Of a DNA stretch of 14,744 nt, positions 1 to 14,744 are shown in pieces (positions within the stretch are counted from its first letter, which is position 1; every line of letters starts with the position of its first letter). The position numbers were made by a program, and so were the translations under genes. The stretch is from Candidatus Nanohaloarchaea archaeon (lineage in GTDB: Archaea > Nanohalarchaeota > Nanosalinia > Nanosalinales > Nanosalinaceae): NCBI GenBank assembly GCA_041640075.1, contig JBEQAY010000001.1, positions 1 through 14,744 on the forward strand, read 5' to 3'. The notes beneath the pieces were generated by a model. The model did no database searches. It saw only the letters and a list, made by a program, of their open reading frames with translations, and was not told where the DNA came from.

Positions 1-92
1 AAATCGACATCTGGAAACCTTTCTCAGTACCCACGTACAAACTTCTCTCCGACGATATAAATAAATTCCACAAAAACAGCGAAAACAGGACA

Positions 93-108
93 AGGAAACT
101 TTTTTATT
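93..108 (+). promoter_or_regulatory. Putative BRE + TATA element for a leaderless or short-leader transcript of 131..847
   Basis: AGGAAACT followed by TTTTTATT. AGGAAACT ends 30 nt upstream of ATG 131, which fits archaeal promoter spacing. Confidence 0.5.
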
Positions 109-130
109 GGTTAGTAGTCACAAGAGGACT

Positions 131-847
131 ATGGAAGAGGTCGATGAATTTCTCTCGTCAGAAAGGTCCAGAAGAGAAGTACTAGCCGGAGCAGGCTCAG
201 CAGCCGTAGCAGCAATTGCAGGATGCTCAGGCGACGAAAACAATAATACCGAAAACCCTGGTTCAAACAGTACAGACGGAGCTACAGATGAACCAGGCTC
301 CGGAGAGGAAAGCGATCCGACAGGAACAGAAGGAGGCAGTTCCGGGACAGAAGACGGGAACCAGAGTACTGGAGAAGGAAACAGCGGTACAGAAGAAAGT
401 GGACCTGAGAGTTACGACGATGACGAGTCTCAAGCTGAAATTGAGGGCGAGGATATACTCACCAATAATTATTTAGGCTGGATAGAATTCGAAGATCCAA
501 GTGAACAGCTTCCCCAAGATAATTACAGCATCGAGGAGTATCCATCACTCGCTGCACTTATTTCAGAAGACTCAGAATCAAGTGAGGCTAATTTTAACGT
601 ATATGAGGATGACTTTGAAACTGTTTACTTTATGTGGTTGGAAGATGGAGATTTAGAAGGAGATGGTATAGGTATACTGATTCAAGGTGTAGAGGATTTC
701 GATGGCCAGATACATCAGGATTACAGTGGCAGTCATACTGACCAAGGAGCAGATCTAGAAGGCATCCTTAGAAACGTAGTTGAAGGATACAATGATGTTT
801 CTCCAAACTTGGATGAAGAATATGCGGAAATCCTAGGTGCGAACTAA
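131..847 (+). CDS. Acidic secreted lipoprotein with Tat-type signal and lipobox, low-complexity S/G/T/E/N linker and C-terminal globular domain of unknown function
   Basis: The ORF track starts at TTG 107, but ATG 131 is preferred because TTG 107 overlaps the TATA-like element. The N-terminus SRREVL-AGAGSAAVAAIAG-C shows twin Arg, a hydrophobic stretch and the lipobox AIAGC. A D/E/G/S/T/N-rich linker follows, with N-x-S/T sequons NNT, NST, NQS and NYS. Confidence 0.8.
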   Translation: MEEVDEFLSSERSRREVLAGAGSAAVAAIAGCSGDENNNTENPGSNSTDGATDEPGSGEESDPTGTEGGSSGTEDGNQSTGEGNSGTEESGPESYDDDESQAEIEGEDILTNNYLGWIEFEDPSEQLPQDNYSIEEYPSLAALISEDSESSEANFNVYEDDFETVYFMWLEDGDLEGDGIGILIQGVEDFDGQIHQDYSGSHTDQGADLEGILRNVVEGYNDVSPNLDEEYAEILGAN

Positions 848-1951
848 TCAACAGCTTCCAGACGCATCGGGCGCCTCCAAGTTAGTAATGACTATGAAAG
901 GATGGATTGTGTTTGCCTTTAGGCTTCCAGCAGCCTCTATATCAGGATTTCCAGGAAGCCTATCAAATTCAGCGCTGTAATACTGAGATCCTCTATCATT
1001 CCAATCATTTCCAGGGCCCTGTTCATTTATGTTTTTACCTACATTTATCTGTATATAACCTTCTGTTCCAGGACAAAGCTTCCATTCCTTTACATCACGA
1101 TCTCTCCAACCATGTCCATCACTGTAAGGAGGATTACCTATATCAGCAAAACCTTCAGCCGTAATGCTATCTTGTCTAGCAGCAGGATCCGCACCAATAA
1201 CGGTCAAAGTTCCTATAGGGCCCTCATCAGTATGGTGAGTGTAGGATTCGTCTGGCACCATACATTCGCCATCTAAAGGTCCGCTACCAAAATCATCCGG
1301 GTGTTCATCCATGCCAAGCCCCCTACGTCCTCCACCCGCTCCCGGGCCAGCGTGTAGGTATCTAATCACATTTGGTACAGTTTCATCTGTGACGTAAAAG
1401 GTGAAATCACCACTGGTTGAGCCTCCAGTGTGTTCATCGTATGCCACGCAAGGGCCTAATCTCACACCATCGGAACCGCTATTTTTTTCGGTAATCGTGA
1501 AGTCTCGTTTTGAATATTCTCCTTCCTGATCATTTATCCAGAAGTCATCTTCTCTGACAAACTCTTCAGCTTCCTCCCAGGCACCCTGTGACAAAGGTAG
1601 TTTGTTTTCAACTCCGTAGCAGTTGAATTCACTTTTTCCACTGTATGACTCGTTTAGTTCTTCAAAGTCATTATGTCTATTTGTATCATCTCTAACTTCT
1701 TCCCATGACGCCCAGTAGGTTGCTCCACCAACAGTTGTTCCTTTCTCGAATCCTCCGGCTTCAGGTGTGCATTGGTATCCTGTGTACGTTGCCCACATTA
1801 TGAACTGTGTCATTGCCTCTGTGTTGTTTATCTGTGCTCCGCGGGCGCCTGCGTTCTGTGCAGCGTCTACTGTCCCTAGCAGGAAGGCTGCTAGCGGGCC
1901 GGCGAATAAGAATACCAGTACTATTCCGAACATGACCTGTATAACGTTCAT
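848..1951 (-). CDS. Membrane-anchored extracellular protein, putative minor pilin or tip adhesin
   Basis: 367 aa. N-terminal hydrophobic helix (VIQVMFGIVLVFLFAGPLAAFLLG) is followed by an amphipathic helix and then a G/D/aromatic-rich domain with 6 Cys and N-glycosylation sequons (NNT, NES). It lies directly after a pilin-like gene (TAA-ATG) and downstream of the ATPase/platform pair. Confidence 0.65.
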   Translation of the reverse strand: MNVIQVMFGIVLVFLFAGPLAAFLLGTVDAAQNAGARGAQINNTEAMTQFIMWATYTGYQCTPEAGGFEKGTTVGGATYWASWEEVRDDTNRHNDFEELNESYSGKSEFNCYGVENKLPLSQGAWEEAEEFVREDDFWINDQEGEYSKRDFTITEKNSGSDGVRLGPCVAYDEHTGGSTSGDFTFYVTDETVPNVIRYLHAGPGAGGGRRGLGMDEHPDDFGSGPLDGECMVPDESYTHHTDEGPIGTLTVIGADPAARQDSITAEGFADIGNPPYSDGHGWRDRDVKEWKLCPGTEGYIQINVGKNINEQGPGNDWNDRGSQYYSAEFDRLPGNPDIEAAGSLKANTIHPFIVITNLEAPDASGSC

Positions 1952-2119
1952 TTATATCATACCTGCTGTAAGGCCGCTTAGTTGTGATAGCATTGCGTTT
2001 GCGATTTGTCCGCCTCCTATTATGTCTGTGGCGACTAGAAGTATTCCTGCTCCAAGCATCAGTGCGAGTAGGAGTATAGCTATCTCCCAGAACATCTGGC
2101 TGTTTCCTTTTCTTTTCAT
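1952..2119 (-). CDS. Small type IV pilin-like protein (55 aa) with class III-like signal peptide; not in ORF track
   Basis: Translated by hand: MKRKG|NSQMFWEIAILLLALMLGAGILLVATDIIGGGQIANAMLSQLSGLTAGMI*. It has a basic leader ending KG, then a ~20-aa hydrophobic helix. Glu is at +7 rather than the common +5. Its stop abuts the ATG of 848..1951. Confidence 0.75.
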   Translation of the reverse strand: MKRKGNSQMFWEIAILLLALMLGAGILLVATDIIGGGQIANAMLSQLSGLTAGMI

Positions 2120-2126
2120 AGTCGGG

Positions 2127-2213
2127 TCATATCACTTCTGCTGTCCAAATGTTGTACATCAGCCAGGCCATGCCTAGTCCTACAGCGACTGCAACTATCT
2201 CTTGGGTTTTCAC
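2127..2213 (-). CDS. 28-aa single-helix membrane micro-protein (putative); not in ORF track
   Basis: GTG start; MKTQEIVAVAVGLGMAWLMYNIWTAEVI*. It fills the gap between a TATA-like element (about 23 nt upstream) and the pilin-like gene (7-nt gap), and is almost entirely one hydrophobic helix. Confidence 0.5.
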   Translation of the reverse strand: MKTQEIVAVAVGLGMAWLMYNIWTAEVI

Positions 2214-2235
2214 GTTTTAGGGTTTCCTGTTCTTC

Positions 2236-2251
2236 GATAAAAAGCTTACCG
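2236..2251 (-). promoter_or_regulatory. Putative TATA-like promoter for the 2213->848 pilin-like gene run
   Basis: Minus strand reads GGTAAGCTTTTTATC, with the TTTTTAT ending 23 nt before GTG 2213. Confidence 0.4.
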
Positions 2252-2270
2252 GGTTTTTGTTCCTCTGAAA

Positions 2271-4445
2271 TTATACTTCCATTCCGGTGATTGCCCCTCC
2301 GAACATGACAGATACCAGCATCATTGTCACGGCATAGAGAATTACACCTATCATCATGACCTTTCCTATAAACGTGTTCTTGTAGGTGAGGTTTTCTCCA
2401 TGGACAATCTTCATATAGAAGGTTCCAAGTATGAACAGAAGCTGGATAAGGTATATCCCGACGACGAACTGAAGTAGCTCTGGAGGGATGGCCTCGTCCA
2501 GACCTTCCATCATTCCTCCAAGACCTCCGCCTCCAAGTCCTCCTGCACCCGCTGCGCCACCCGCTCCGTCTACCTCTGGAACCGATTGAGAGAGCTGATA
2601 CATGGCAGTTATAATCGTCTGGCTCATTCCTACCGCGACACCTGAGATAACGGGTGAAAGCATGTATGCCAGGAGCTGTATGGTGGTTGTCGACTCCTCC
2701 ATCAGGTCATTAAGCGTTTCCTCGGTCTTGTGGACGTCTTGAAGGTATCTAGATATGGTAAGCATGGTCTCAGCTGCCATGCCTGTCCCTTTCTTGGAGG
2801 ATTTCATTATAGCTGTCATAATCGTATCAATCATCTGGCTTGGGAAGTCACGCAGTGAACCGTACTTCTCGTCGAAAATAGCCTGTTCAAAAGTCATCCC
2901 CATCTTCTCAATATTTCTGTATGACTCCTGGAAGAGACTGGATATCTCAAGATCCTTGGTCGCTTCAGCAGCATCCTTCAATGCTATCTCGATAGGCGTA
3001 CCTCCTGAAACTTTGTTACCAAGCTCGAAAAGTGCATTAGGGAACTCAGACTCCATCTGTTCTATCCTGGACTCAGCTTCACGCCTTGATATAGTTCCAA
3101 GATACTTAGAAAGCCCTATACCAAGACCCAGCCCAACTATTATACTGACAGAACGTGTAAGCATAATAACAGGATTCAAACTTTCTTCTCCAGAGAGGAA
3201 TATGGTTGGCGTCGAAGCCGGGTCGACACTGGAAACCGGATATACCTCCGGAAATATCAGGTAACCGATCCACCCCCAGAGAGAAATCAGAATGAAGACT
3301 AAGGCGCCTAAAGGCCACGTAGGAATCCAGTGCGTGTCGCCGAATATATCCAGTTTGTACTTTCCTAGAGGAGGCATTGTATCATCGTTTACAGGCTGTG
3401 ACGAAACTGTAGGAGGTCTGGAGCTCAGTACTCTCTGCATGAAAACCCACAGGAATCCTGGAAGCATTATATTGAATACAATGAATAGATGCATCGGTGT
3501 AATCGCTCCACCCATGAATACAGAGATAAGCGGGAGCATGATCATGCCAAGTACTGGAAGCATAGCTCCCATAGCGTTTATAACCATTACAGGCGTCTTC
3601 AGTCCCTGTGCATAGTGCTTCATTTTCTCCTGAGTCCCATCCAGGATGTTATCTATGGAGTCCTGAAGCATGTCAGACCGGCGTCCATCATCTGATTCAT
3701 TCATTGCTGCCTTGATCAGGTTCAGAGACTCAAGGAAGTCCTTATTGAAATCCTTCCAGGTTTCAGTATAGTTTTCCAATGATTCCTCGATAGTATTGTA
3801 TTTACCAACCTCTACATCCCAAAGAACACCTTTGAGATCATGTGAAACCGGTCCCTGGAGGTTCAAAGCTGCAAACCTTACTGCGCCTTCAAGATTGGGC
3901 GACGAGCGCATGTATACGACCATATATAGTATCGCAAGAATCATCTCTCCTGAGCTCTCGATGACCTTGTTCTGGGCGGCAAACTTTGGTTTATAGAACA
4001 TATATGCGCCTGCACCGATAGGAGCTATGAGAGATATCAACATGAGAGAGGTAGGTATAAACGGTCCGAGAATCATGTTAAAAATGAAAGCAAAGGCCCA
4101 AATGAAGAAAGAGAAAACCCCAACACCTACAGCGCCTGAAAGTACCTGTCCAGGAGTCAAATTCCATCCAAGAAGATTTAAAGATGGGTTGAGCTGCTCT
4201 TGAATTGAATCGTCTGCTTCAAGACTAAATAAACCCGCCATCTTATAGCAGAGCTTTTCATAAGTATTTTGTTCCTGGGCTCGCTCTTCCTCCTCTTTAT
4301 ATTGTTTGTATTTACGTGAATAACCTCTCTTATTCGATCCTGTGTTGTACGGTGGACGCTGTATATCTCTGTCTAGATTATTAACTATTTCATTGATCTT
4401 CTCCTCTTTCGCTTCCCTCCTTTTCTCTTCGTCAGACCTTGACAC
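2271..4445 (-). CDS. Type IV pilus / T2SS-F family membrane platform protein (TadC/PilC/ArlJ-like, two F domains)
   Basis: 724 aa, polytopic. Two cytoplasmic F-type domains are visible (ILAILYMVVYMRSSPNLEGAVRFAA and EFPNALFELGNKVSGGTPIEIALKDAA), each followed by TM helices. It is adjacent to the ATPase. GTG start with AGGTG RBS 6 nt upstream. Confidence 0.88.
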   Translation of the reverse strand: MSRSDEEKRREAKEEKINEIVNNLDRDIQRPPYNTGSNKRGYSRKYKQYKEEEERAQEQNTYEKLCYKMAGLFSLEADDSIQEQLNPSLNLLGWNLTPGQVLSGAVGVGVFSFFIWAFAFIFNMILGPFIPTSLMLISLIAPIGAGAYMFYKPKFAAQNKVIESSGEMILAILYMVVYMRSSPNLEGAVRFAALNLQGPVSHDLKGVLWDVEVGKYNTIEESLENYTETWKDFNKDFLESLNLIKAAMNESDDGRRSDMLQDSIDNILDGTQEKMKHYAQGLKTPVMVINAMGAMLPVLGMIMLPLISVFMGGAITPMHLFIVFNIMLPGFLWVFMQRVLSSRPPTVSSQPVNDDTMPPLGKYKLDIFGDTHWIPTWPLGALVFILISLWGWIGYLIFPEVYPVSSVDPASTPTIFLSGEESLNPVIMLTRSVSIIVGLGLGIGLSKYLGTISRREAESRIEQMESEFPNALFELGNKVSGGTPIEIALKDAAEATKDLEISSLFQESYRNIEKMGMTFEQAIFDEKYGSLRDFPSQMIDTIMTAIMKSSKKGTGMAAETMLTISRYLQDVHKTEETLNDLMEESTTTIQLLAYMLSPVISGVAVGMSQTIITAMYQLSQSVPEVDGAGGAAGAGGLGGGGLGGMMEGLDEAIPPELLQFVVGIYLIQLLFILGTFYMKIVHGENLTYKNTFIGKVMMIGVILYAVTMMLVSVMFGGAITGMEV

Positions 4446-4458
4446 ATTTCACACCTGT

Positions 4459-6726
4459 CTAGTCCACCTGTCTGTCCAGCCATTCCTTCCACCTGGCATA
4501 GATTCTTTCAGTATCCTGCTCACCGTACTCCTCTGTCACCCGGTTTGAAAGAATGTGATACCTCTGGTTACATTTTGACACGAATTCGGCTTCCAGAAGC
4601 TCGTCATTACCTGTCTCCTCAGCTTTCTCAACTATCGCCTCTTTAATCTTCTTCCTGAGCTGGATATCATCCCATACAGCCTCCCAATTATTCTTGTAAC
4701 CCTTGATATTATCTGCAATCCTGCTGATAATCTCTGACTCTCCATTGAGGAGAGTATCAGTTGGCACAAGTTCGTCCTTGTTGCTGTCGTACCGCATAAG
4801 TTCAACAAAAGCGTCCTCCTTCAGTGGATCTTCCTCCCACTCCTTTCTGACCTCAGTGATGCCCGTTACACGTCTGTACGTTTCGAGTCCATCAGGGCTT
4901 CTGATCTTGTTGACTGAGACGATGATGTCGGTAGCCTTGAAGGAAGTTCTCGGCACGTTCAGGTCGTTCACCACTCTATCGAATACGGAGTATGCATCCT
5001 CTCCGTGGATTGTTCCTCCAACAAAGTTCGCTACAGCCCCAACACGCATAGCTTCATACAGCGCCTGGGCTTCATCAGATCTTACCTCTCCAATAATCAG
5101 TGCTGAGTCTCCAAGGCGCAGAGAGGTCCTGATAGCATTGTCTGCGCTCATCTCGCTTTCTACCTGAGTAATTACGGAACGGGATTTCATCCTCTCGATA
5201 TTGTAGCCTAGATCCTTCATCTGAGGTATAGGAAGCTCTAATGTGTCCTCTACAGTGACAATCCTGTGGTTTTTCATGATCTCAAGCATCGCTGCCGACA
5301 TCAGGGATGTTTTTCCTGCTCCTCGTGTTCCTGCAAAGAGATGTGACCTGTTCCCATCCACCAGGAAAGATAGGACGGCTGCACCGATGCTGTTGATAGT
5401 ATTGTTTTTGATGAAAAGTGGTAGTGTCCAAATACGGGATCTGTGGCGCCTTAATGTGAATGCTAGGCCTTCTGGGCTTAGATTTTCTTGTATTACTGCT
5501 ACACGTGCTTTTCCACCTTTAACCTCTGTTTCTGTGTCCAGTACCGGGTTTGCTTCGTCCAGAGGTCTCCCTGACTGTATCCTGAAACGTGTAGCCCATG
5601 ATTCTGCCTCTTCCTTTGTAGGTATCAAATTGGTTTCACAGTCCTCAAAGTCCTGATGAGTTAGGTATATAGGTGATTCCCCAATAGGAGAGTTGATGTA
5701 GATATCCTCCACCTTTGGGTCTGATATAAGTAGTTCTAGAACTCCTAGACCTGAGGTATAGCGGTTCAGTATCCCTGTAAGTGCTTCAAGTTCGTCAAGT
5801 GACAGATCCAGGCCCATCTGGTTGGCGATGTCACGTAGCATATCACGGCCGATGTTCTGGAAGACCTCCTGCATCCTGTCAGGCTGGGCGAACTCTCCCT
5901 CCTCTGGTTTGTGTGAGGCCATGAATCTTCTTGCAGCGTCCAGAAGTTTGTACTTCTCCTCCGGTAGATTGAATTCTGGCGGGTTGACATGGTAAACCGG
6001 TCTGGTCTGATCCGGTACCTCGTAAATCGAGACCTCAACATCTCCCTGAACATCGTATCTCGCCTTCTCCTCACCTCTCTCTGGAGGCAGGGACATGTAC
6101 TTTGTAAGCATAAAGTTCGGCCTGACCAGTGGGTGGAAGAATTCCCTGTAGATCTCCCTGTCGCCGACATGGTATCCGGTCAGGTAGTCCTGTGCCTTCT
6201 GGATCATCTCGCATTCTTCTAAGGTATTCATCACAGGGTTGATGACATCCTGGATGAAGTACTTGAGACAGCGCTTCTGCTGCGGGTAAGCGTGCTCCTG
6301 ATCCTGCTTCATATGTCTCTTTTTTCTTCTCAATTCGACGTACGCTCCTACAGGATCTCTTCTTAACTGGTCGAAAACTGTTTTCTGGACCTCAGGCAGG
6401 TGTTTCTCATAGAGCTGGCTGCATTTATCACGCTCTATGTCCTGGGATAGATACCCTTGAGATGAAATACTTCTTATAGCCTCTGCTATCTCTCTTAAAA
6501 GCCTTATCTGATCTTCTTCATATTCGTATTCTCTTGATTCTGATAATACTACGTTTCCTGCTTCCGGTATCTCCTGTAGAATGTTTATAACACGCGACAT
6601 CACTTCAGGGTAGTCCTCTATGGATGCTCCGTAGATCGAGCCGAGCATATTGATTTCGACGGTGCCTGTGTCGTCGTCGTATTCGTACTCGAATACGTCC
6701 TTGTTTTTTACGTCCATACCTAACAT
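4459..6726 (-). CDS. Type II/IV secretion system ATPase (VirB11/TadA/PilB/ArlI superfamily), type IV filament assembly motor
   Basis: 755 aa. Walker A GTRGAGKT, Asp box VEDTLEL, Walker B LIIGEVR, His box GTIHG, and typical N2-domain motifs (LLISDPKVEDIYINSP, TLRRH). The start may be ATG 6726 or ATG 6717. Confidence 0.95.
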   Translation of the reverse strand: MLGMDVKNKDVFEYEYDDDTGTVEINMLGSIYGASIEDYPEVMSRVINILQEIPEAGNVVLSESREYEYEEDQIRLLREIAEAIRSISSQGYLSQDIERDKCSQLYEKHLPEVQKTVFDQLRRDPVGAYVELRRKKRHMKQDQEHAYPQQKRCLKYFIQDVINPVMNTLEECEMIQKAQDYLTGYHVGDREIYREFFHPLVRPNFMLTKYMSLPPERGEEKARYDVQGDVEVSIYEVPDQTRPVYHVNPPEFNLPEEKYKLLDAARRFMASHKPEEGEFAQPDRMQEVFQNIGRDMLRDIANQMGLDLSLDELEALTGILNRYTSGLGVLELLISDPKVEDIYINSPIGESPIYLTHQDFEDCETNLIPTKEEAESWATRFRIQSGRPLDEANPVLDTETEVKGGKARVAVIQENLSPEGLAFTLRRHRSRIWTLPLFIKNNTINSIGAAVLSFLVDGNRSHLFAGTRGAGKTSLMSAAMLEIMKNHRIVTVEDTLELPIPQMKDLGYNIERMKSRSVITQVESEMSADNAIRTSLRLGDSALIIGEVRSDEAQALYEAMRVGAVANFVGGTIHGEDAYSVFDRVVNDLNVPRTSFKATDIIVSVNKIRSPDGLETYRRVTGITEVRKEWEEDPLKEDAFVELMRYDSNKDELVPTDTLLNGESEIISRIADNIKGYKNNWEAVWDDIQLRKKIKEAIVEKAEETGNDELLEAEFVSKCNQRYHILSNRVTEEYGEQDTERIYARWKEWLDRQVD

Positions 6727-6760
6727 TGTTATTCGAGCATTGGTAAAAGGTTAGGTAGAT
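6727..6760. promoter_or_regulatory. 34-bp divergent intergenic region (putative overlapping bidirectional promoter)
   Basis: Only 34 nt separate the ATPase ATG (minus strand) from ATG 6761 (plus strand). Minus strand has CCTTTTACC; plus strand has an AGGTAG RBS-like element before ATG 6761. Confidence 0.4.
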
Positions 6761-7204
6761 ATGCCGCAACAGCAGAACATCATAAACCAGGTTGTTGACC
6801 GGGTTAACGACTTCAACCGTAGAGTCCGAGATCTGGAAGAGAAGATCAGAAACCTCTCTGCAAGAGTCGACGCTTTGGACGATACAGTGATGAACAAGAC
6901 GGAGCAGAACAGTGATGATATCCAGAGCCTGGAGAACGACATGGAGGAGATCAGTGACCGGATGGCAAACATAGAGGTTGACATCAAGAACATCAACAGG
7001 GAGAAAAGGAAGTTTGTGACCTCCCAGGAACTGGATGAGATCGAGAACTACATGGATCTCATGAACCCTATCCACTCCTCATTTATGACCGAAAAGGAGT
7101 TCGAGGAGAAAATGGATGAGGAAGGATATATTTCCGAGGAAAAAGTGGAGAAGATGATTGAGGAGAAACTTGAGCAGGTTGCAGGAACTGACAATCAAGG
7201 TTAA
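6761..7204 (+). CDS. Acidic coiled-coil protein (147 aa), predicted trimeric alpha/beta coiled coil
   Basis: Continuous heptads over about aa 8-84. RhxxhE trimerisation motifs RVRDLE and RMANIE. Three (F/Y)-h-(T/S) motifs: FVTSQEL, FMTEKEF, YISEEKV. No TM segment. Confidence 0.85.
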   Translation: MPQQQNIINQVVDRVNDFNRRVRDLEEKIRNLSARVDALDDTVMNKTEQNSDDIQSLENDMEEISDRMANIEVDIKNINREKRKFVTSQELDEIENYMDLMNPIHSSFMTEKEFEEKMDEEGYISEEKVEKMIEEKLEQVAGTDNQG

Positions 7205-7248
7205 ATACCCGGAGAACATAAAATTTTGATAGCTAGAAGATAAGAGGA
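7196..7248 (+). promoter_or_regulatory. Putative promoter (CAAGG-TTAAATA) and RBS (AAGAGGA) for 7255..8112
   Basis: TTAAATA at 7201-7207 is preceded by purine-rich CAAGG. AAGAGGA at 7242-7248 is 6 nt before ATG 7255. Confidence 0.45.
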
Positions 7249-7254
7249 TTTGAA

Positions 7255-8112
7255 ATGGATTTCAAGCTCTTTGGACGTCTGAAAGACGACGATGGAGGAG
7301 GCGGCCAGAACAACTCCGCTGATAAACCAAGTCAGAGACAGCAACAGAATCAAGGAATGAATCAGATGGGAGGAGGCGGAGACGTAGGCAGAACAGTCAG
7401 CTCCATGTTCGACCAGGGATATTCAGAAGAGGAAATCCGAAACGAACTGCAGGGACAGTACAGTTCAGAACAGATAAACAGAGCGATAAACAACGCAGTC
7501 ACATCCTCCGCAACAAGCGGAGACCAGGATCAAGGAGGACCACAACCAATGAGCCCCTACCAAGAAGAAGACGATACACCAGATCCCTCAAACCAGGGAC
7601 AGAACCAGCAGAATCAAACACAACCGCAGCAGACCCAGCAACAGATATCCAACCAGGGGCAGGGCCAACAGCAGCAGGCACTGATGCAGGGATCAGGGGG
7701 GAACCAGGTTGACCCTCAGGTAGAGGAGCTTATCGAAACAATAATTTCAGAGAACTTCCAGAAAGTGGAACAGGAGTTCCAGAACGTTTACAGCGAACTT
7801 GATGTTATAGCAGAGGAACTTGAAGAACTGGAGGAAAGAGTACATGATCTTGAAGTACGGGATGACGAAGATCAGAAGGAATTCGTGGAAAAGATGGATG
7901 AGGTCGAGCAACATATTGACTCCTACGAATCAAGAATCGGAGGACTGGAAAAGGCATTCCAGCAGATGCTTCCATCACTCGTAGACAACATCAGAGATCT
8001 AACTGGTCTAGTCCAGGAGATCAAGCAGGAGCAAGGTATAGAAACAGACTCAAGTGTCTCAAGTCAAGAAGTCAAGGATGTAGATATGGATGCGTTCAGC
8101 AAGCAGGACTAA
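7255..8112 (+). CDS. Acidic protein with small helical domain, Q/N/G-rich disordered linkers and C-terminal coiled coil (285 aa)
   Basis: N-terminal MDFKLFGRLK, Q-rich linkers and a helical motif (VSSMFDQGYSEEEIRNELQGQYSSEQINRAI). Heptads over about aa 155-258 contain the RhxxhE motifs RVHDLE and RIGGLE. Confidence 0.85.
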   Translation: MDFKLFGRLKDDDGGGGQNNSADKPSQRQQQNQGMNQMGGGGDVGRTVSSMFDQGYSEEEIRNELQGQYSSEQINRAINNAVTSSATSGDQDQGGPQPMSPYQEEDDTPDPSNQGQNQQNQTQPQQTQQQISNQGQGQQQQALMQGSGGNQVDPQVEELIETIISENFQKVEQEFQNVYSELDVIAEELEELEERVHDLEVRDDEDQKEFVEKMDEVEQHIDSYESRIGGLEKAFQQMLPSLVDNIRDLTGLVQEIKQEQGIETDSSVSSQEVKDVDMDAFSKQD

Positions 8113-8168
8113 AAAATATATTACTCCTTCTTCAACTTCCTCAATTTCCAATTAATTTCTGAAATAAC
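8110..8168. terminator. Convergent intergenic region, probable T-rich archaeal terminator(s)
   Basis: Lies between convergent stops 8112 and 8168. The plus strand is pyrimidine-rich, and an A6 run at 8111-8116 reads T6 on the minus strand. Confidence 0.3.
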
Positions 8169-8659
8169 TATGACTTGGTTGTCTGCTGGACAATCAAGAG
8201 GAAGAACACAAGAATTAGAATAGGCATTATCACATCGTTGAAAACACTCTGCGTCTCCCCAATCAGATTGTCAATATCAATGTATGTAACTACAACTGTG
8301 ACAAATGATACAACAAATATAGTTACCGCAAAGTATCTAGGAGTACCGCCCTCAGCATACTCGTTGATATCGTAACCAGCCATCGCCACCAGAACCATGA
8401 AACCAAGCAGGCCAAAAAGACCGAAAGTAATCGCGGCCGCAAAGTTAGTGAATATACCTGCTGGAGCAAACTGGTTTATGCCAATAATAGAGAGAAAAGC
8501 CATTGCCAACGCTATAGAGCCGTTTACCTGTGTCTCTCCACTTACAACTTCATATTTCTCTAGAAGACCGTAGCTCACTGAAAGAACAAGAAGCCATGGG
8601 AGAAATAGGCGGAAGCCCATTTCCACCATGGTTTCAACGATGATCTCGAAGGCGGCCAT
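8168..8659 (-). CDS. Polytopic membrane protein (163 aa, ~5 TM), paralogue of 8673..9305
   Basis: Hydrophobic throughout. Motif GFRLFLPWLLVLSVSYGLLEK...QVNGSIALAMAFL. GGCGTGAT RBS-like sequence upstream. Confidence 0.85.
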   Translation of the reverse strand: MAAFEIIVETMVEMGFRLFLPWLLVLSVSYGLLEKYEVVSGETQVNGSIALAMAFLSIIGINQFAPAGIFTNFAAAITFGLFGLLGFMVLVAMAGYDINEYAEGGTPRYFAVTIFVVSFVTVVVTYIDIDNLIGETQSVFNDVIMPILILVFFLLIVQQTTKS

Positions 8660-8672
8660 CCAATATCACGCC

Positions 8673-9305
8673 TTATCCGTCATCATCACTGTCTCCGCCT
8701 AGCTCCTGAGTAAACAGCTTCTCTAGGAGGCTGTCCTCATCTCCATTTTCTGATGGATCTTTCATGGACCACCAGAGCAGCCCCAGTATCAGGATTATGA
8801 ATATCACTCCCGTATTTAGCGACCAGTTCAGGAATCCAAATACTGCGTTGAGTATCTGGTTCTGACTTTGGACTGGTAGGAGTGATGCGTTTAGTCCTCC
8901 TGATACTACGAATAGTGCTGCTATGAACAGTGCGGCGATGCCGCCCCAGATTCCGGTTCCCATGTTTTCCAGTTCGATTCCGAACCATCCAAGCATGACC
9001 AGCAAGCCCAGGAATCCTACCATCAGCACAGTAAATCTTCCGAGGTACTGTGTGAAGAACTGCTGGTACGCTGGATTCATCACTATAAACCTGGATGTGA
9101 AGAAGGCGAAGGCTATAGACAGAATAGCAGAGAACTGTTTCGCTCGCCCTTTATCGTCAAGTATCTGCTCCGAAACCTTCCTCAGCATGAAGAAGAATAT
9201 CGCATAGGTTATTACGAAAGGTAGCAGCCCTGTGAAAAACCCTATGTTCTCTAAGGACTGCATTAGTTGTCCGAATGAACCTGCGCCTTCAAACAGACTC
9301 GCCAT
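8673..9305 (-). CDS. Polytopic membrane protein (210 aa, ~5 TM) with acidic tail
   Basis: Motif GFFTGLLPFVITYAIFFFMLRK...KQFSAILSIAFAFF. GGTGA RBS upstream; 4-nt gap from the previous gene. Confidence 0.85.
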   Translation of the reverse strand: MASLFEGAGSFGQLMQSLENIGFFTGLLPFVITYAIFFFMLRKVSEQILDDKGRAKQFSAILSIAFAFFTSRFIVMNPAYQQFFTQYLGRFTVLMVGFLGLLVMLGWFGIELENMGTGIWGGIAALFIAALFVVSGGLNASLLPVQSQNQILNAVFGFLNWSLNTGVIFIILILGLLWWSMKDPSENGDEDSLLEKLFTQELGGDSDDDG

Positions 9306-9309
9306 TCAG

Positions 9310-9564
9310 TTATTCACCGTCCACATCCCATTTCTCGTATACAGCGTTCTTGATCAACCATAGCTCTCGGCCTATGATCATGAGAGCCAGCATCGTGACC
9401 CATGGCTCTATTGTGTTGCCAAGATCGAGGAAGCTTACAGAGCCTGGTGAAACGAATAGGACATAGATTGAGACAAAGATCGCCCCAAACGAGAGAACTG
9501 CAATCAATACTTCATCGATCCAGTTCTCGACCTCGTAGAGGTAGCGGTGTAGCTTCTTATCCAT
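9310..9564 (-). CDS. Small 2-TM membrane protein (84 aa)
   Basis: Two hydrophobic helices (VLIAVLSFGAIFVSIYVLFV; PWVTMLALMIIGRELWLI). Its ATG overlaps the upstream stop (TAATG), with GGAGGT RBS upstream. Confidence 0.8.
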   Translation of the reverse strand: MDKKLHRYLYEVENWIDEVLIAVLSFGAIFVSIYVLFVSPGSVSFLDLGNTIEPWVTMLALMIIGRELWLIKNAVYEKWDVDGE

Positions 9565-9701
9565 TAGAAATTACCTCCCATTCCGCCACCGCCAAACTTG
9601 CTTTGGATTTTAGCTCCAATATATCCAATCGCCAGCCCGGCGATAAGAACTGTTGGATTATTCATTGCTTGGGTCATTATAGCACTTGCGCTGAAAGCCA
9701 T
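9564..9701 (-). CDS. 45-aa single-TM protein with glycine-zipper-like helix and Gly/Phe tail; not in ORF track
   Basis: Translated by hand: MAFSASAIMTQAMNNPTVLIAGLAIGYIGAKIQSKFGGGGMGGNF*. GAGGTA RBS lies 8 nt upstream, there is a strong TATA further upstream, and it has a TAATG overlap with the next gene. Confidence 0.8.
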   Translation of the reverse strand: MAFSASAIMTQAMNNPTVLIAGLAIGYIGAKIQSKFGGGGMGGNF

Positions 9702-9740
9702 ATTTTTAATACCTCTATACCATTACGTTGTCTTTCCTCC

Positions 9741-9756
9741 TTTATATAATTAAAAC
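9741..9756 (-). promoter_or_regulatory. Strong TATA box for the 9701->8168 membrane-protein operon
   Basis: Minus strand reads GTTTTAATTATATAAA about 40-55 nt upstream of ATG 9701, leaving room for a short leader that contains the GAGGTA RBS. Confidence 0.6.
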
Positions 9757-9780
9757 CCGAACGTCACAATGCCTAAGAGT

Positions 9781-12168
9781 CTATTCGAACATATCCATGC
9801 CATTAACCAAATCAAGCTCCTCAGAGATATCTTGATAGATCAATTCTTCCTTTTCGTTGATGTCTTTTATTTTAGCGTGAATTTCCTCAAGCATTTCTGT
9901 AGCATCGCTCTTTTCAGGTAGCTCTCTCTGGTGCTCATGCAGTATCTCAAGAAGTTGCTGCACTCTCCGATCTTCCTTGCTCTCGACCTTTGCAACCTGT
10001 CCAAGAAGCTCTGTCTCGTGTCTATCTTCTTTAGATACCTTCTCAAGCAGATCTTCTGCTGCTTCCAGCATCTCCTTCCCCTTTCCTTCAGAGAATTCCT
10101 GCATGTAATTATAGACTTCTTCTTCATCAAGCATACTCATCTCCATCCTGAATTCCTTCATAGCTCCCTCTCTGTATTCCTCAGGGATATCATCCAGATC
10201 ATTTTTCAGTTGCTCAATCCTTCCATGAATCCTCTGCCAGCCGTCAGCCATTCGCTCTACTTTCTCGTAAACTTCTCTGAAATCTTCTACTGCCTGGAAG
10301 AAGTCTTTCTCTTCACCATCCTCCTTCTCAACCTGTCTTGAAATAGAGTCATCTATCTCCCCGAGCCTGCCCAGTATCTGATGAACTACCTCATCGAGAG
10401 TTCCATCCAATCTATGTTTCTCCCCGTCATGGGTAAATTCTGTGTTAACTTCAGGCCTACCCCACTCAAAGTCTCCATCAAGATCAGATTCCACGGCTTG
10501 AAGTGCCTTACCCACATACTCTAGGGTACTCTCTATCTCCTCATCTTTCTTTATATCATCTTTTTTGTTATCTTTCAGCTCGTCAAGTTCCATTCCTGTC
10601 TGTTCCAGTTCTTTCTTAAGCTGCTCGAACTCCTTGGATAGATTATTCTTGTCCAGAGAGCTGAAATGATCCTCCAGAATGTGATCTATGTCTGTTACAG
10701 CACGATCAACCTTGCGAGTCTTTTCACGTTCTATATCACTTACATAGCCGTACTCTTCATCCTCCATCTGCTCAAGTTTGCTCTCAAGATGTTCAGCACT
10801 CTCCACTTTCTCCAAGGTGTTCTTTATCCTTCTATCCATTATCAGAATATTTTCGATATCGGTTGCCTCCAGTCTCTCTATCTCTTCTGAGGTTCTTACC
10901 ATCTTACTGTATTCTTCGGTTACACTTTCAACCATTTGCTTCTCTCTTCCATCCGGAAAAGCATCACCTAACCGTTTAAGGAATTCGTGAGGTCTTACTG
11001 AGGCTCCGTGCTCATGTCCTTCAATTCTTGAACGAAGCTGCTCATCTTCCCCCGCAACATGGTCAACAACACTGAAGCTCTGCTGCATGATGTTGTGGGC
11101 TCTTTCAAAGGCCTCAATCATCCAGGCCTCCTGTCTTAAAATCTGCTCTGAATCTGATTTAAGTTCGAAAGTCTCCTCCTCTTCAGACTCAACCTTTTGA
11201 AGTATAGCATCCATATTCTGTTCTATTATATCGTTATCAGCGTCACTACTTTTTATTTCCGAAGCTATATCCTCTGCTATCTGCTCCCTGTCCTCAAGCT
11301 GCTGTATATTAAGTCTTACCTTCATAAGCTGCAGGAAAATATTCTCATTACGTTCTACTAGACCTGCAAGGTCTTCAAGAGTATCTCTTTTACCTTCAGC
11401 CTCTTCAGAGGCATTGGATGCAAGAGGTTTGAGTACCTTTGTATTGATTTTCTGAAGATCTTCAAGTGCATGAGCTAAGCCATATCTGTTGCTCCGGGAA
11501 TATGTACTGCTACTGTATCCTATACCCCAGTCATCGATGGCCTTGGAAGCGGACTCAAAATCCAGTCCCTGCATCCCCGAGTCAAGCCCCGACTCCTGAA
11601 CTCCATATGGATCATCTCCAATAATAATTTTCTCGACATCAGTACGGCGCAAATCCGCGAGATTATCTGGCAGTTGGCGGTGAAGATTATCTATAAACGT
11701 CAGAACCCTGTTTAAACGGTGAGTCCAGTCTCCTATAACCTCTTCTTCCCCAGACTCAACATCCAGTTCTCTTTCAAGCTCATCAACAGCCCGCTGCATA
11801 TCACTCCTGTTCCTCTCCATGATGTCTCTCAGAGAACCTCCATACCTGGTAGACGACATTAGTTTTTCAACATCCTTGATAAGGACCTGAATACCTCCTG
11901 TTTCTCCACCTCTGTATTCATTGATTGTCTCCTCTCCAATAGAATGGTCGGACATCTGATCAAGCCATTCACCTTCAGCTTCTTCAGCATTCTGGGGGAA
12001 ACTTACCTCATGATTTGATATATCTAGCACCAGCTCAGGTTTTGGTTTAAGATCTCCTGACTCTATACGCTCTTGGATCTCACTTGAACCACCAATTGAT
12101 GTAAAACCGGATTTAACATCCGAAAGCTTATCCATCAAACCTTTATCGCCGTCTTCTTGATCAGCCAT
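9781..12168 (-). CDS. Large acidic soluble coiled-coil protein (795 aa), function unknown
   Basis: E/D/K/L-rich heptad pattern over most of its length. No TM segment, signal peptide or Walker A motif. It shares aligned blocks with 12209..13957. Confidence 0.88.
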   Translation of the reverse strand: MADQEDGDKGLMDKLSDVKSGFTSIGGSSEIQERIESGDLKPKPELVLDISNHEVSFPQNAEEAEGEWLDQMSDHSIGEETINEYRGGETGGIQVLIKDVEKLMSSTRYGGSLRDIMERNRSDMQRAVDELERELDVESGEEEVIGDWTHRLNRVLTFIDNLHRQLPDNLADLRRTDVEKIIIGDDPYGVQESGLDSGMQGLDFESASKAIDDWGIGYSSSTYSRSNRYGLAHALEDLQKINTKVLKPLASNASEEAEGKRDTLEDLAGLVERNENIFLQLMKVRLNIQQLEDREQIAEDIASEIKSSDADNDIIEQNMDAILQKVESEEEETFELKSDSEQILRQEAWMIEAFERAHNIMQQSFSVVDHVAGEDEQLRSRIEGHEHGASVRPHEFLKRLGDAFPDGREKQMVESVTEEYSKMVRTSEEIERLEATDIENILIMDRRIKNTLEKVESAEHLESKLEQMEDEEYGYVSDIEREKTRKVDRAVTDIDHILEDHFSSLDKNNLSKEFEQLKKELEQTGMELDELKDNKKDDIKKDEEIESTLEYVGKALQAVESDLDGDFEWGRPEVNTEFTHDGEKHRLDGTLDEVVHQILGRLGEIDDSISRQVEKEDGEEKDFFQAVEDFREVYEKVERMADGWQRIHGRIEQLKNDLDDIPEEYREGAMKEFRMEMSMLDEEEVYNYMQEFSEGKGKEMLEAAEDLLEKVSKEDRHETELLGQVAKVESKEDRRVQQLLEILHEHQRELPEKSDATEMLEEIHAKIKDINEKEELIYQDISEELDLVNGMDMFE

Positions 12169-12180
12169 GGTAAATACTGT

Positions 12181-12206
12181 TTATAACTTATTGAAAAGAG
12201 TTTCCT
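12181..12206 (-). promoter_or_regulatory. Putative promoter of 9781..12168
   Basis: Minus strand reads AGGAAACTCTTTTCAATAAGTTATAA. AGGAAACT ends exactly 30 nt before the ATG, as it does upstream of ATG 131. Confidence 0.4.
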
Positions 12207-12208
12207 AA

Positions 12209-13957
12209 TCAGGTATATCTCGTATCTCCTTCACCCAGCCAGTCTCGGAGATCTTCACCTATCTCACTAGCTATCTTGTTTTGACCTTCATTCTCAGCAG
12301 CCTCACCAAGAATACTTTCCATCCTTCCGTACACTTCCCTTTCCTCATCTTCAAACTGATTAATCATTGTCTCCATCTCATCATGCAACGTAGAAATCTT
12401 GTCTATAATATCACTCATGATCGCGGCTCCATCTTCAAGGATGTCATTATCTATGGCGGGAGGAGTATCAGCCTGCGAATTTCCAAAGGCATCTCTAAAT
12501 CTAATAACTGTATCTTCCAACCCGGACTCCCACTTCAATTCCTCCTTTAGTTGCTCTATTTCTTTACCATCGTATTCCAAAAATCTTGAAGTCGTTCCCA
12601 AAACAGATTCTATTTTTGACTCAATCTCTGACTCATAGTCCTCCAGCTGGCTTATTATATCTTCAACCTTCTTTTCCTCACTTATCATGCTCTCGGATGC
12701 GTTATGAAGCTTCTCAAGTTTCCCTTTCTCCTCTATGGCTTCCATCTTTTCAGAATCTTCCTCAAGTTCTTCAAGAATATTAATCATCTTTCTAATCAAA
12801 GACTGAGCTCTTATAGCTTTCTCAACCACATTTTCAAAGTCCTTTGTTGCCTCAGCAAGATCACCAGATTCATCTTGATAATCTTTTTCTGCAATTCTCA
12901 AATCCTCCTGAATCTTCTGAATATCCTCTTCAATACCACCTAAACCATACTCCGAAGGTAGATCCACCTCATCGATATCAGCTTCAAAATTAGGATCGTT
13001 GATATCCAAACTGCCTTCAATAAATCTCTTTACTTGATTTTTACTGTAGGTGCCAGAACCGGTGTTTATAATCTCGCCACGACTAGGATGATCAACTATC
13101 CACGTAGTAACTTCACTACCTCCATTGGCAGCTGTCTCAAGGTAAAGTCTCACCCTCTTAATCCTGTTCCCAATGTCTGAAAGTCTTGCTTCTTCATCAC
13201 TCTCGTCTCTAACAGCATTAGCATAATCTCTGTGAGCTTCCTCAAGTCTGTCTCCCATGGCTTCAAAATCTTCTCCTAGATCGGGTGCTACCGCTTTCAT
13301 CAACTTAACTGTATTTTCAAACTCTTTCTCAGCATCCTGTAGATTTCCTTCCTCTGCATCTTTCTCTCCGCCCCGCATGCTTTCATAGGCCTGTCCTATT
13401 CTATCAGCAGCTCCAGAAAGCGCTTGATCCGCACCTACCTGTTTACCAGCCTCTTCTACCCCTTTTGCACCTGCTCTTAATCCAAGAGCGCCAGAAAAAG
13501 GGATGCTGCCCAAAGCTGCGCCTCCACCACCTAAGATAACGAAAGCAGCCGCAGCCACAAAGCCAAGGCCTAGTGCCAAAGTAATTAGTGATTGAAAACC
13601 ATTAACTATACCAGCGCTACCTGCTCCGAACGTACCAGCAATAGTAAACAATACAGATAATACCGCCACTAGATTTCTTCCATCACTCCCTCCAAACAAG
13701 TCTCTGTCGGATATATAAGATGAGCGCTCAGAAGCGGAACGGAACAGTATCTTGAAAATCATATACACAGAAAGATTCATGAAGGCAAAAGTTGCCAAGA
13801 AAGCCATCAGATTCGTCATGTTACCTTCTATCCCTAGAACCTGGGTAATCAGAGGTATAACACCTACAAATCCTTGACTAGAATCAGTAATTGCCGCTAC
13901 CGAGAAAGGGGTTACTGCAACCGCTGACAACAATAACCTGACCAATCTCCTTGGCAT
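12209..13957 (-). CDS. Membrane-anchored acidic coiled-coil protein (582 aa)
   Basis: Signal-peptide-like N-terminus (MPRRLVRLLLSAVAVTPFSVAA), about 3-4 hydrophobic helices in aa 30-160, a G/A-rich segment, then about 400 aa of acidic heptad-rich sequence. An AT-rich TATTTAAG element ends 24 nt upstream of the ATG. Confidence 0.88.
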   Translation of the reverse strand: MPRRLVRLLLSAVAVTPFSVAAITDSSQGFVGVIPLITQVLGIEGNMTNLMAFLATFAFMNLSVYMIFKILFRSASERSSYISDRDLFGGSDGRNLVAVLSVLFTIAGTFGAGSAGIVNGFQSLITLALGLGFVAAAAFVILGGGGAALGSIPFSGALGLRAGAKGVEEAGKQVGADQALSGAADRIGQAYESMRGGEKDAEEGNLQDAEKEFENTVKLMKAVAPDLGEDFEAMGDRLEEAHRDYANAVRDESDEEARLSDIGNRIKRVRLYLETAANGGSEVTTWIVDHPSRGEIINTGSGTYSKNQVKRFIEGSLDINDPNFEADIDEVDLPSEYGLGGIEEDIQKIQEDLRIAEKDYQDESGDLAEATKDFENVVEKAIRAQSLIRKMINILEELEEDSEKMEAIEEKGKLEKLHNASESMISEEKKVEDIISQLEDYESEIESKIESVLGTTSRFLEYDGKEIEQLKEELKWESGLEDTVIRFRDAFGNSQADTPPAIDNDILEDGAAIMSDIIDKISTLHDEMETMINQFEDEEREVYGRMESILGEAAENEGQNKIASEIGEDLRDWLGEGDTRYT

Positions 13958-14008
13958 ATACCTGTAATTAACTTTTAATGACTTAAATATTGAAGGTTTC
14001 CATGACTT

Positions 14009-14455
14009 CTAACTGAAGGCCTGCCAGAGAACCCAGAGAAATGCCGCCACTATAGCAAAGAAAAACACGTAACTAATTGTGCCGAACAGAACAGCGATGT
14101 AGTCCTGGAAAACTTGGAAATACGGACTTGGAACAATCATCCCTGTAACTGCCAGAGACATCAGCATCGAGTACTTTCTGACACGCTTCTTTTCCGCACT
14201 CCTTGAACCCGCGACAAGCAGTCCGTCATCGTCTGCATAAGAGAATGAAAGTGCTTTCTCAAACCCTCTCTGAAAGATGATTGCTATCAGAAGAAACGGA
14301 GCAACAAAATTTGTCAGAGCAGTCCTTGGATCCTCCAGCGAGTCATAGAAACCTTCGGTGGCCGAGTAGCTGAAGAGGTCTCCATGAAAACCTGAACCCA
14401 GGCTTGCAAAAATAAGTACAAGGAAGAAAATCGAGAGCAGTCTTTTACTCTCCAA
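14009..14455 (-). CDS. Membrane protein (~148 aa) with signal-peptide-like N-terminus and the paralogous membrane-hairpin domain
   Basis: The ORF track starts at 14587, but that overlaps the upstream gene by 143 nt. In-frame TTG 14455 (MESKRLLSIFFLVLIFASLGSG...) has a GGTGA RBS 8 nt upstream and overlaps the upstream gene by only 11 nt. Motif LTNFVAPFLLIAIIFQRGFEK...RKYSMLMSLAVTGMIV. Confidence 0.75.
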   Translation of the reverse strand: MESKRLLSIFFLVLIFASLGSGFHGDLFSYSATEGFYDSLEDPRTALTNFVAPFLLIAIIFQRGFEKALSFSYADDDGLLVAGSRSAEKKRVRKYSMLMSLAVTGMIVPSPYFQVFQDYIAVLFGTISYVFFFAIVAAFLWVLWQAFS

Positions 14456-14744
14456 AGTCCATGTCACCGCCGCCGAAGTCATCGTCTCCGCCACCAGCGT
14501 CACCGCCGAAGTCTCCTCCGCCGCCTCCACCGGAGCCAAAGCCGCCTTCACGGACTTTTTCGATATAAGCCGGGATAACCTCGTCAATCATGAAACCTGC
14601 GAAGAGACCCGTACCCGCAATAACAGCAAACCTGGCCATCGTCTCAGATAGCCCAACGTTACTGGCAACAACACTTGTTAAACCGATAGAAGCAAGATAA
14701 CCTATCACCGCCGCCAGCGGAAACGCCAGATACTTCCACGGATC
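14445..14744 (-). CDS. Small membrane protein with Gly/Asp/Phe-rich C-terminal tail (5' end truncated by window edge)
   Basis: The frame is open to the window end: DPWKYLAFPLAAVIGYLASIGLTSVVASNVGLSETMARFAVIAGTGLFAGFMIDEVIPAYIEKVRE followed by the tail GGFGSGGGGGDFGGDAGGGDDDFGGGDMDFGE*. Two TM helices are visible. Confidence 0.8.
   Translation of the reverse strand, partial: DPWKYLAFPLAAVIGYLASIGLTSVVASNVGLSETMARFAVIAGTGLFAGFMIDEVIPAYIEKVREGGFGSGGGGGGDFGGDAGGGDDDFGGGDMDFGE
14448..14548 (-). repeat. Imperfect coding repeat (GGC/GGA-rich; GACTT(C/T)GG x3) encoding DFG(G) units
   Basis: The plus strand shows CACCGCCGCCGAAGTC, CACCGCCGAAGTC and CCAAAGTC copies, which translate to GDFGG, DDFGG and MDFGE. 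Confidence 0.55.

Follow-up and report, generated by a model that had tools for sequence, protein, structure and literature searches.

What does a run of membrane protein genes do next to the pilus-type locus of a small-genome archaeon? The question is raised by a stretch of 14,744 nucleotides (hereafter the window: positions 1 to 14,744, forward strand, of contig JBEQAY010000001.1, GenBank assembly GCA_041640075.1) from a Candidatus Nanohaloarchaea archaeon whose genome has a size of 0.98 Mb and is 89% complete. An initial annotation, made from the letters of the window, described four open reading frames (ORFs) as diverged copies of one membrane helical hairpin and proposed that they are subunits of a hetero-oligomeric ring or channel. 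The four ORFs, named here A to D, and all eight helices quoted in it are present on the minus strand. Our reading, to which we give a probability of roughly 0.58, is that A, B, C and probably D serve the neighbouring DPANN pilus-type machine (an ATPase, TadC and two coiled-coil proteins) as accessory subunits in the membrane. The genes concerned are the following (TM, transmembrane; pLDDT, predicted local distance difference test; pTM, predicted template modelling score; both from AlphaFold2):

8168..8659, minus strand: A, 163 aa, five-helix family member, last gene of the run (71% identity in a same-genus genome; pLDDT 67.5, pTM 0.48)
8673..9305, minus strand: B, 210 aa, paralogue of A, likewise with five helices, and with an acidic tail at the C-terminus (pLDDT 83.8, pTM 0.57)
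14009..14455, minus strand: C, ~148 aa, predicted signal peptide and three-helix domain, tailless; remote paralogue of A and B (start uncertain)
12209..13957, minus strand: D, 582 aa, three TM helices behind a predicted signal peptide, then an acidic coiled-coil-like tail of ~420 aa (family membership unproven)
7255..8112, plus strand: 285-aa coiled-coil protein, convergent with A, co-occurring with the family
6761..7204, plus strand: 147-aa coiled-coil protein (36 loci)
4459..6726, minus strand: CpaF/VirB11-type secretion ATPase, 755 aa (PF00437, E = 2.6e-14)
2271..4445, minus strand: TadC/T2SSF-type platform protein, 724 aa (PF00482, 27 bits for a cut-off of 25.2)

A converges head-on with the plus-strand pair of coiled-coil genes, from which the ATPase and TadC genes diverge. 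The closest named homologues of A are nanohaloarchaeal, and 39 related nanohaloarchaeal loci were taken for comparison, with one alignment per gene.

The shared membrane domain

Profile-profile comparison was carried out with HHalign after removal of signal peptides and judged against 40 shuffles of the alignment columns in which the TM layout was preserved, with TadC segments, neighbouring proteins and reversed alignments as further controls. A against B (163 and 210 aa) gave 99.6% (z = 39) and B against C (210 and 148 aa) gave 90.4% (E = 1.4e-6, z = 11), the latter matched by none of the 40 shuffles. The direct comparison of A with C (163 and 148 aa) yielded 0.5% and was matched by six of the 40. 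An iterated hidden Markov model (HMM) of the N-terminal half of the family, seeded with 96 database proteins that exclude those of the window, was run on 6462 sequences, half of them reversed and including 1804 ORFs of the same genome. It recruited C of the window at round 2 (independent E-value, iE, 1.4e-7), and by round 3 it had taken up the whole set of 20 C orthologues; none of the reversed or own-genome decoys scored below 1e-3. Reciprocally, the C profile matches five-helix members at 6e-6 and 8e-5. Because of the profile scores, the decoy-free recruitment of C and these reciprocal matches, A, B and C are, as judged from sequence, one family. Of the four copies originally described, three (163, 210 and 148 aa) are thus confirmed. 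The 84-aa protein encoded just upstream of B is at most a candidate fifth copy: it gave 7.6% against the N-terminal half of A, 38% against its C-terminal half and 0.15% against the C-terminal half of B.

The alignments run through TM3, so the unit has three helices: those of the proposed hairpin exist, but the hairpin itself is not what is shared. This three-helix domain is present in two layouts, a five-helix protein (163 and 210 aa) and a signal peptide followed by three helices with or without a tail (148 aa; 582 aa by layout only). In four loci (L083, L084, L091 and L092) the family is represented by a three-helix protein of ~100 aa, which in the first three is followed by a two-helix protein of 62-70 aa; these split members, with parts of ~100 and ~65 aa in one lineage, mark the natural domain boundary (3+2). 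Beside the array, other DPANN loci have three-helix-plus-tail genes of their own. Their products were picked by eye and bounded with the iterated HMM, so that the pooled profile built from them is not fully independent; it gave 94.5% against B, 72.7% against C and 0.1% against D. The family is modular (five-helix, split, and signal-peptide/three-helix/tail forms), a modularity that would place some of the variable long acidic proteins of the nanohaloarchaeal locus in it.

The position of D is weaker. Its family scores 0.3%, 0.9% and 1.2% against the other three. A D-like gene lies after C in 19 of 20 loci (by our grouping, nine of the D1 type found in the window and ten D2, the same-slot proteins of other genomes). 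D2 gave 89% against the C family, and five of 16 D2 proteins were recruited by the iterated HMM by round 5. D1 matched D2 at 36-46% over helix 1 (z = 6.9), an unrelated control pair giving 24%, and a merged C+D2 HMM assigned D of the window an iE of 0.97. D lacks the helix-1 proline. A D-D2 value of 96.7% obtained with signal peptides included was discounted, as these align generically. The link of D to the family is transitive only, backed by architecture and gene slot; it is plausible, and we hold membership of D to be rather probable. The D tail has 26% D+E and a helical/heptad periodicity in 11 of 14 windows (at most 2 of 60 shuffles). The coiled-coil stalk proposed for one subunit thus has a real periodicity, but the tail is predicted to be cytoplasmic, because it follows TM3 and because of the topology of the five-helix members (see below), and it evolves fast: D is 27% identical in the same genus and was found only among loci of the window's family.

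In 71 five-helix members from outside the nanohaloarchaea, the mean number of K+R is 3.6, 0.2, 2.5 and 0.5 in loops 1 to 4 and 2.8 in the C-terminal tail. This alternation predicts an N-out, C-in topology in which loops 1 and 3, like the C-terminus, face the cell interior. In TM1 the proline and two leucines are nearly invariant, and the residues at three TM1/TM2 positions are small in 99-100% of members. None of the TM helices of the 71 members has a conserved charged or amide residue in its middle, D/N being conserved at helix ends only. MotA/ExbB/TolQ-type channels have a conserved membrane-embedded charged residue. An ion-conducting channel, or a MotA/ExbB-like energizer of the pilus machine with D as its stalk, is for this reason very improbable, and the data do not demonstrate the ring or channel of the initial annotation. 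Small multi-helix paralogues beside a motor and the long coiled-coil tail of D would fit such a device, but the missing mid-membrane charge speaks against it, as do three features of D: it evolves rapidly, is confined to loci of the window's family and in most of its loci follows a TATA-like box of its own. As to a fold matching such a channel, structure searches returned generic helical matches only.

Pfam and NCBIfam have no family above cut-off for the four proteins, and the most-matched Pfam family at E 0.001, DUF2070, is hit by at most 6 of 110 family members. The best E-value of a sequence search in the PDB was 0.037, and Foldseek found nothing at E 0.001 for the A or B model. The best VIA-align scores (A: Z 8.3, 82 residues aligned, root-mean-square deviation 2.8; B: Z 7.8, 60 residues, 1.9) fall within the range of generic helical bundles; they do not establish a match, nor do they point to a new fold. 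In the ESM Atlas, the matches are unnamed archaeal clusters only. The B model has an N-terminal helix ahead of TM1. A prediction of the A+B complex scored 0.00 in both runs with an uncertain partner fold, and is uninformative either way.

Distribution and linkage to the pilus-type locus

The archaeal survey proposed in the initial annotation traced the family through small-genome archaea. The B profile matches 2296 clusters at 50% identity. A broad profile finds the family in 107 of 301 genomes. Within the window's own taxonomic family it matches 46 of 49 genomes, among the remaining members of the order 13 of 20, and among other archaea 47 of 231. All 47 have genomes of 0.5-1.6 Mb and two to seven matches each, and the named relatives belong to Nanohaloarchaea, Aenigmatarchaeota and Nanobdellota. 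The profile of the 285-aa coiled-coil protein is matched by 45 of these 47 genomes; conversely, all 43 genomes outside the order that match it at E <=2.3e-12 carry the membrane family. In the nanohaloarchaeal loci the array adjoins the 285-aa gene in 39 of 40 cases, with a median gap of 28 bp. Among 33 other genomes (32 of the 47 with listed coordinates, plus that of L066), array and coiled-coil gene share the fetched stretch in 21, of which 19 have the ATPase too, and in two more the linkage is evident from coordinates. In L067 and L097 the coiled-coil genes are followed on the same strand by the array. Linkage to the adjacent CpaF/TadC/coiled-coil pilus locus is the main functional clue, one that the initial annotation did not take up.

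A FastTree phylogeny of 124 members (20 loci were left out to cut redundancy; deep nodes are weak) resolves A and B as separate clades with supports of 0.95 and 0.99 and 13 genomes each. Another lineage has fixed trios, and others show recent duplications. The proposal that the proteins are paralogous subunits of one hetero-oligomeric membrane complex is consistent with these data: paralogy holds for three genes and is plausible for the fourth, and a shared complex is reasonable because all 47 genomes outside the order have at least two copies, A and B form separate clades and the TM1/TM2 small-residue face is invariant.

Several observations weigh against a role of the array in the pilus-type machine. 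The functional case as a whole is one of guilt by association. At weak scores (E 1.3e-10 or worse), the coiled-coil profile also finds 17 genomes that lack the family. The loci used to build this profile had been selected through the family, and related genomes are not independent. The array was not seen beside the coiled-coil gene in 10 of the 33 non-nanohaloarchaeal genomes, some of these at contig ends. In the window it is convergent with the coiled-coil gene and not co-transcribed with it. Paralogues arose repeatedly by lineage, some by recent duplication, so no universal fixed subunit set exists. Finally, D of the window was never recruited in five rounds of the family HMM, and is statistically not in the family. 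Lack of linkage in up to 10 of the 33 genomes would also fit a scaffold that shapes the membrane or serves polarity or division in very small cells; it would be functionally separate from the pilus, and its association with the pilus genes would be ancient gene order only. The helix ahead of TM1, the low monomer pTM and a predicted promoter of its own agree with such a scaffold, but we judge it quite unlikely: the linkage outlasts inversion and reordering across several lineages, and presence tracks the coiled-coil gene in 45 of the 47 genomes.

A possible accessory complex of a DPANN pilus-type machine

In the role that we favour, that of accessory membrane subunits of the pilus-type machine, A and B would pack via the TM1/TM2 small-residue face into a hetero-oligomeric collar or scaffold around the platform, conducting no ions. 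This membrane subcomplex would work with TadC, the ATPase and the coiled-coil proteins. The three-helix forms (C and D type) may be additions of particular lineages, transcribed separately, that hold variable coiled-coil tails there on the cytoplasmic side. The machine itself probably serves host attachment, as the literature on the locus suggests. Bacterial PilMNOP and Tad inner-membrane accessory subcomplexes provide a functional analogy, with membrane accessories beside platform and ATPase. No sequence relationship to these was found, and the window proteins differ in being polytopic with predicted cytoplasmic tails.

Conserved type IV pilus loci with CpaF, TadC and coiled-coil proteins (CCPs), the latter expressed, are described across cluster-2 DPANN archaea in the consulted parts of Hamm et al. 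(2024, PMC11291902). Of the genes in these loci, the CpaF/VirB11-type ATPase and TadC (above the Pfam cut-off) are found in the window. The window resembles their Locus 2, in which a nanohaloarchaeon has a CpaF-type ATPase and TadC together with two coiled-coil proteins, and the range of their loci resembles that of the family (Nanohaloarchaeota, Aenigmarchaeota and Nanobdellota lineages). The two conserved, widespread coiled-coil genes of the window are candidate orthologues of NAR1_03220 and NAR1_01690. The membrane paralogue array is unmentioned in those parts, and the term "membrane protein" has no occurrence in the main text; Supplementary Dataset 13, with ten genes on each side of every CCP, may include array genes.

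Archaeal type IV filament (T4F) systems, for example subclade 4F with the coiled-coil arCOG07564, likewise combine a core ATPase and platform with lineage-specific membrane and coiled-coil accessories, and the sections consulted on them describe no multi-copy family of five or three TM helices (PMC4858521; PMC13705601). T4F genes of Nanobdellati are reported to be mostly scattered (PMC13705601), whereas the block of the window is ordered. The family is also undescribed in the main texts, as far as consulted, of PMC6393860, PMC5898192, PMC9258230, PMC8204110 and PMC11420986. No description of it was found in the searched literature, which covers few subscription papers. The array thus represents an apparently undescribed, modular membrane family, probably accessory to the DPANN pilus-type machine.

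The same paralogues might form their own hetero-oligomeric conduit, a portal passing proteins, lipids or solutes at the site of host contact, with the pilus genes adjacent since both serve host attachment. We regard this as unlikely. Multiple copies in all 47 positive genomes outside the order and the small-residue packing face agree with it, and the high local confidence of B combined with its pTM of 0.57 might mean that the monomer does not form a compact bundle on its own. Cryo-electron tomography has shown cones embedded in the envelope of Nanobdellota, with a portal of 20 nm; the parts consulted do not name component genes (PMC11420986). The TM helices, however, have no conserved polar lining, the array is tightly linked specifically to the coiled-coil/ATPase/TadC block, and no tie between these genes and cone or portal was found. 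It is conceivable, but improbable in our estimate, that a DPANN-specific host-contact portal surrounds the CpaF/TadC motor or draws its power from it, and that the five- and three-helix paralogues make up its modular wall. If so, it would be a new secretion or feeding apparatus and would give a molecular identity to the attachment structures seen by tomography, and rapidly evolving subunits with tails, the 582-aa protein among them, would adjust the portal to each host lineage.

It is still to be learned how DPANN archaea attach to their hosts and feed on them; the literature sections examined do not name any protein of the contact structures. A family with two to seven copies, tied to one pilus-type motor and matching no named family or solved fold, provides a short target list for proteomics, localization and structure determination.

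Transcription and neighbouring genes

The minus strand reads, in order, a small Gly/Asp-tailed protein, C, D, E, a 45-aa ORF, the 84-aa gene, B and A. A to D are co-directional, but three other genes and conserved TATA-like boxes intervene:

9781..12168, minus strand: E, 795 aa, soluble, acidic and helical, without a TM helix; it occupies a hypervariable slot and lies outside the family
9741..9747, minus strand: TATA-like box, located at -42 to -53 in 17 of 18 loci and predicted to serve the 45aa-84aa-B-A unit as promoter
9564..9701, minus strand: 45-aa single-helix ORF, likely first gene of the 45aa-84aa-B-A operon (18 loci)
9310..9564, minus strand: 84-aa membrane protein, conserved just upstream of B (25 loci)

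A TATA-like box lies ahead of the 45-aa gene in 17 of the 18 loci and ahead of D in 19 of 27 (1.3% in coding controls); boxes ahead of B (5 of 37) or A (3 of 40) are rare. Upstream of D in the window the pattern is unmatched, a variant being visible by eye. One operon for all four genes is improbable in view of the separate boxes ahead of D and of the 45-aa gene in most loci. Their presence there and scarcity ahead of B or A suggest a core operon ending in B-A, with variable upstream genes transcribed separately. The 45-aa ORF that heads the 84aa-B-A genes has a Gly-rich end and usually a GAGG motif upstream. Homologues of the 84-aa gene adjoin the array in L083 and L091. A protein of ~90 aa with two helices and a Gly/Asp tail is encoded at 14445-14744 (minus strand), directly upstream of C in 16 loci; since its gene overlaps the C start, the initiation codon of C is uncertain.

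Conservation relative to a same-genus genome falls from the ATPase (90%) and TadC (75%) to A (71%), B (48%), C (47%) and D (27%); E has no orthologue there. Homologues of E were absent at E<0.01 from the fetched loci and from the rest of the genome, and Pfam has nothing above cut-off for it. E as a detached D tail is not supported: the matches were weak BLAST ones among acidic helical proteins (E about 1e-3), and phmmer gave none. In eight loci the variable slot upstream of the 45-aa gene is filled by an ATP-grasp (RimK-like) gene, absent from the window. Of six slot genes scanned, four hit an ATP-grasp Pfam family. Slot genes of this kind lie at:

L025, 8896-9954: ATP-grasp slot gene
L027, 10020-11114: ATP-grasp slot gene
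L028, 8854-9942: ATP-grasp slot gene
L031, 10077-11120: ATP-grasp slot gene

Speculatively, this enzyme might modify the acidic tails.

A second cluster of the same genome, on contig C3 (L061, 6791-14855), has two D paralogues (704 and 266 aa) and an acidic 488-aa protein. It also codes a 790-aa helical protein with a weak metallophosphoesterase match and a 372-aa helical protein with no Pfam match at 1e-5, whose HxH...SxxD motif we take to be JAB/MPN-like. Seven genomes of 0.6-1.1 Mb (G078, G101, G143, G164, G205, G224 and G300) match the coiled-coil profile only weakly (E 1e-6 to 1e-10), with no family match; they are possibly a lineage with diverged or missing membrane genes. After TadC, single-helix ORFs of 55 and 367 aa (848-2119, minus strand) vary strongly between genomes, the latter being 33% identical in the same genus. 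Both look pilin- or adhesin-like, the pilin label having been given by eye. The ATPase ORFs of L039, L044, L051 and L053 have 1248-1943 aa compared to about 755 elsewhere, possibly due to intein insertions.

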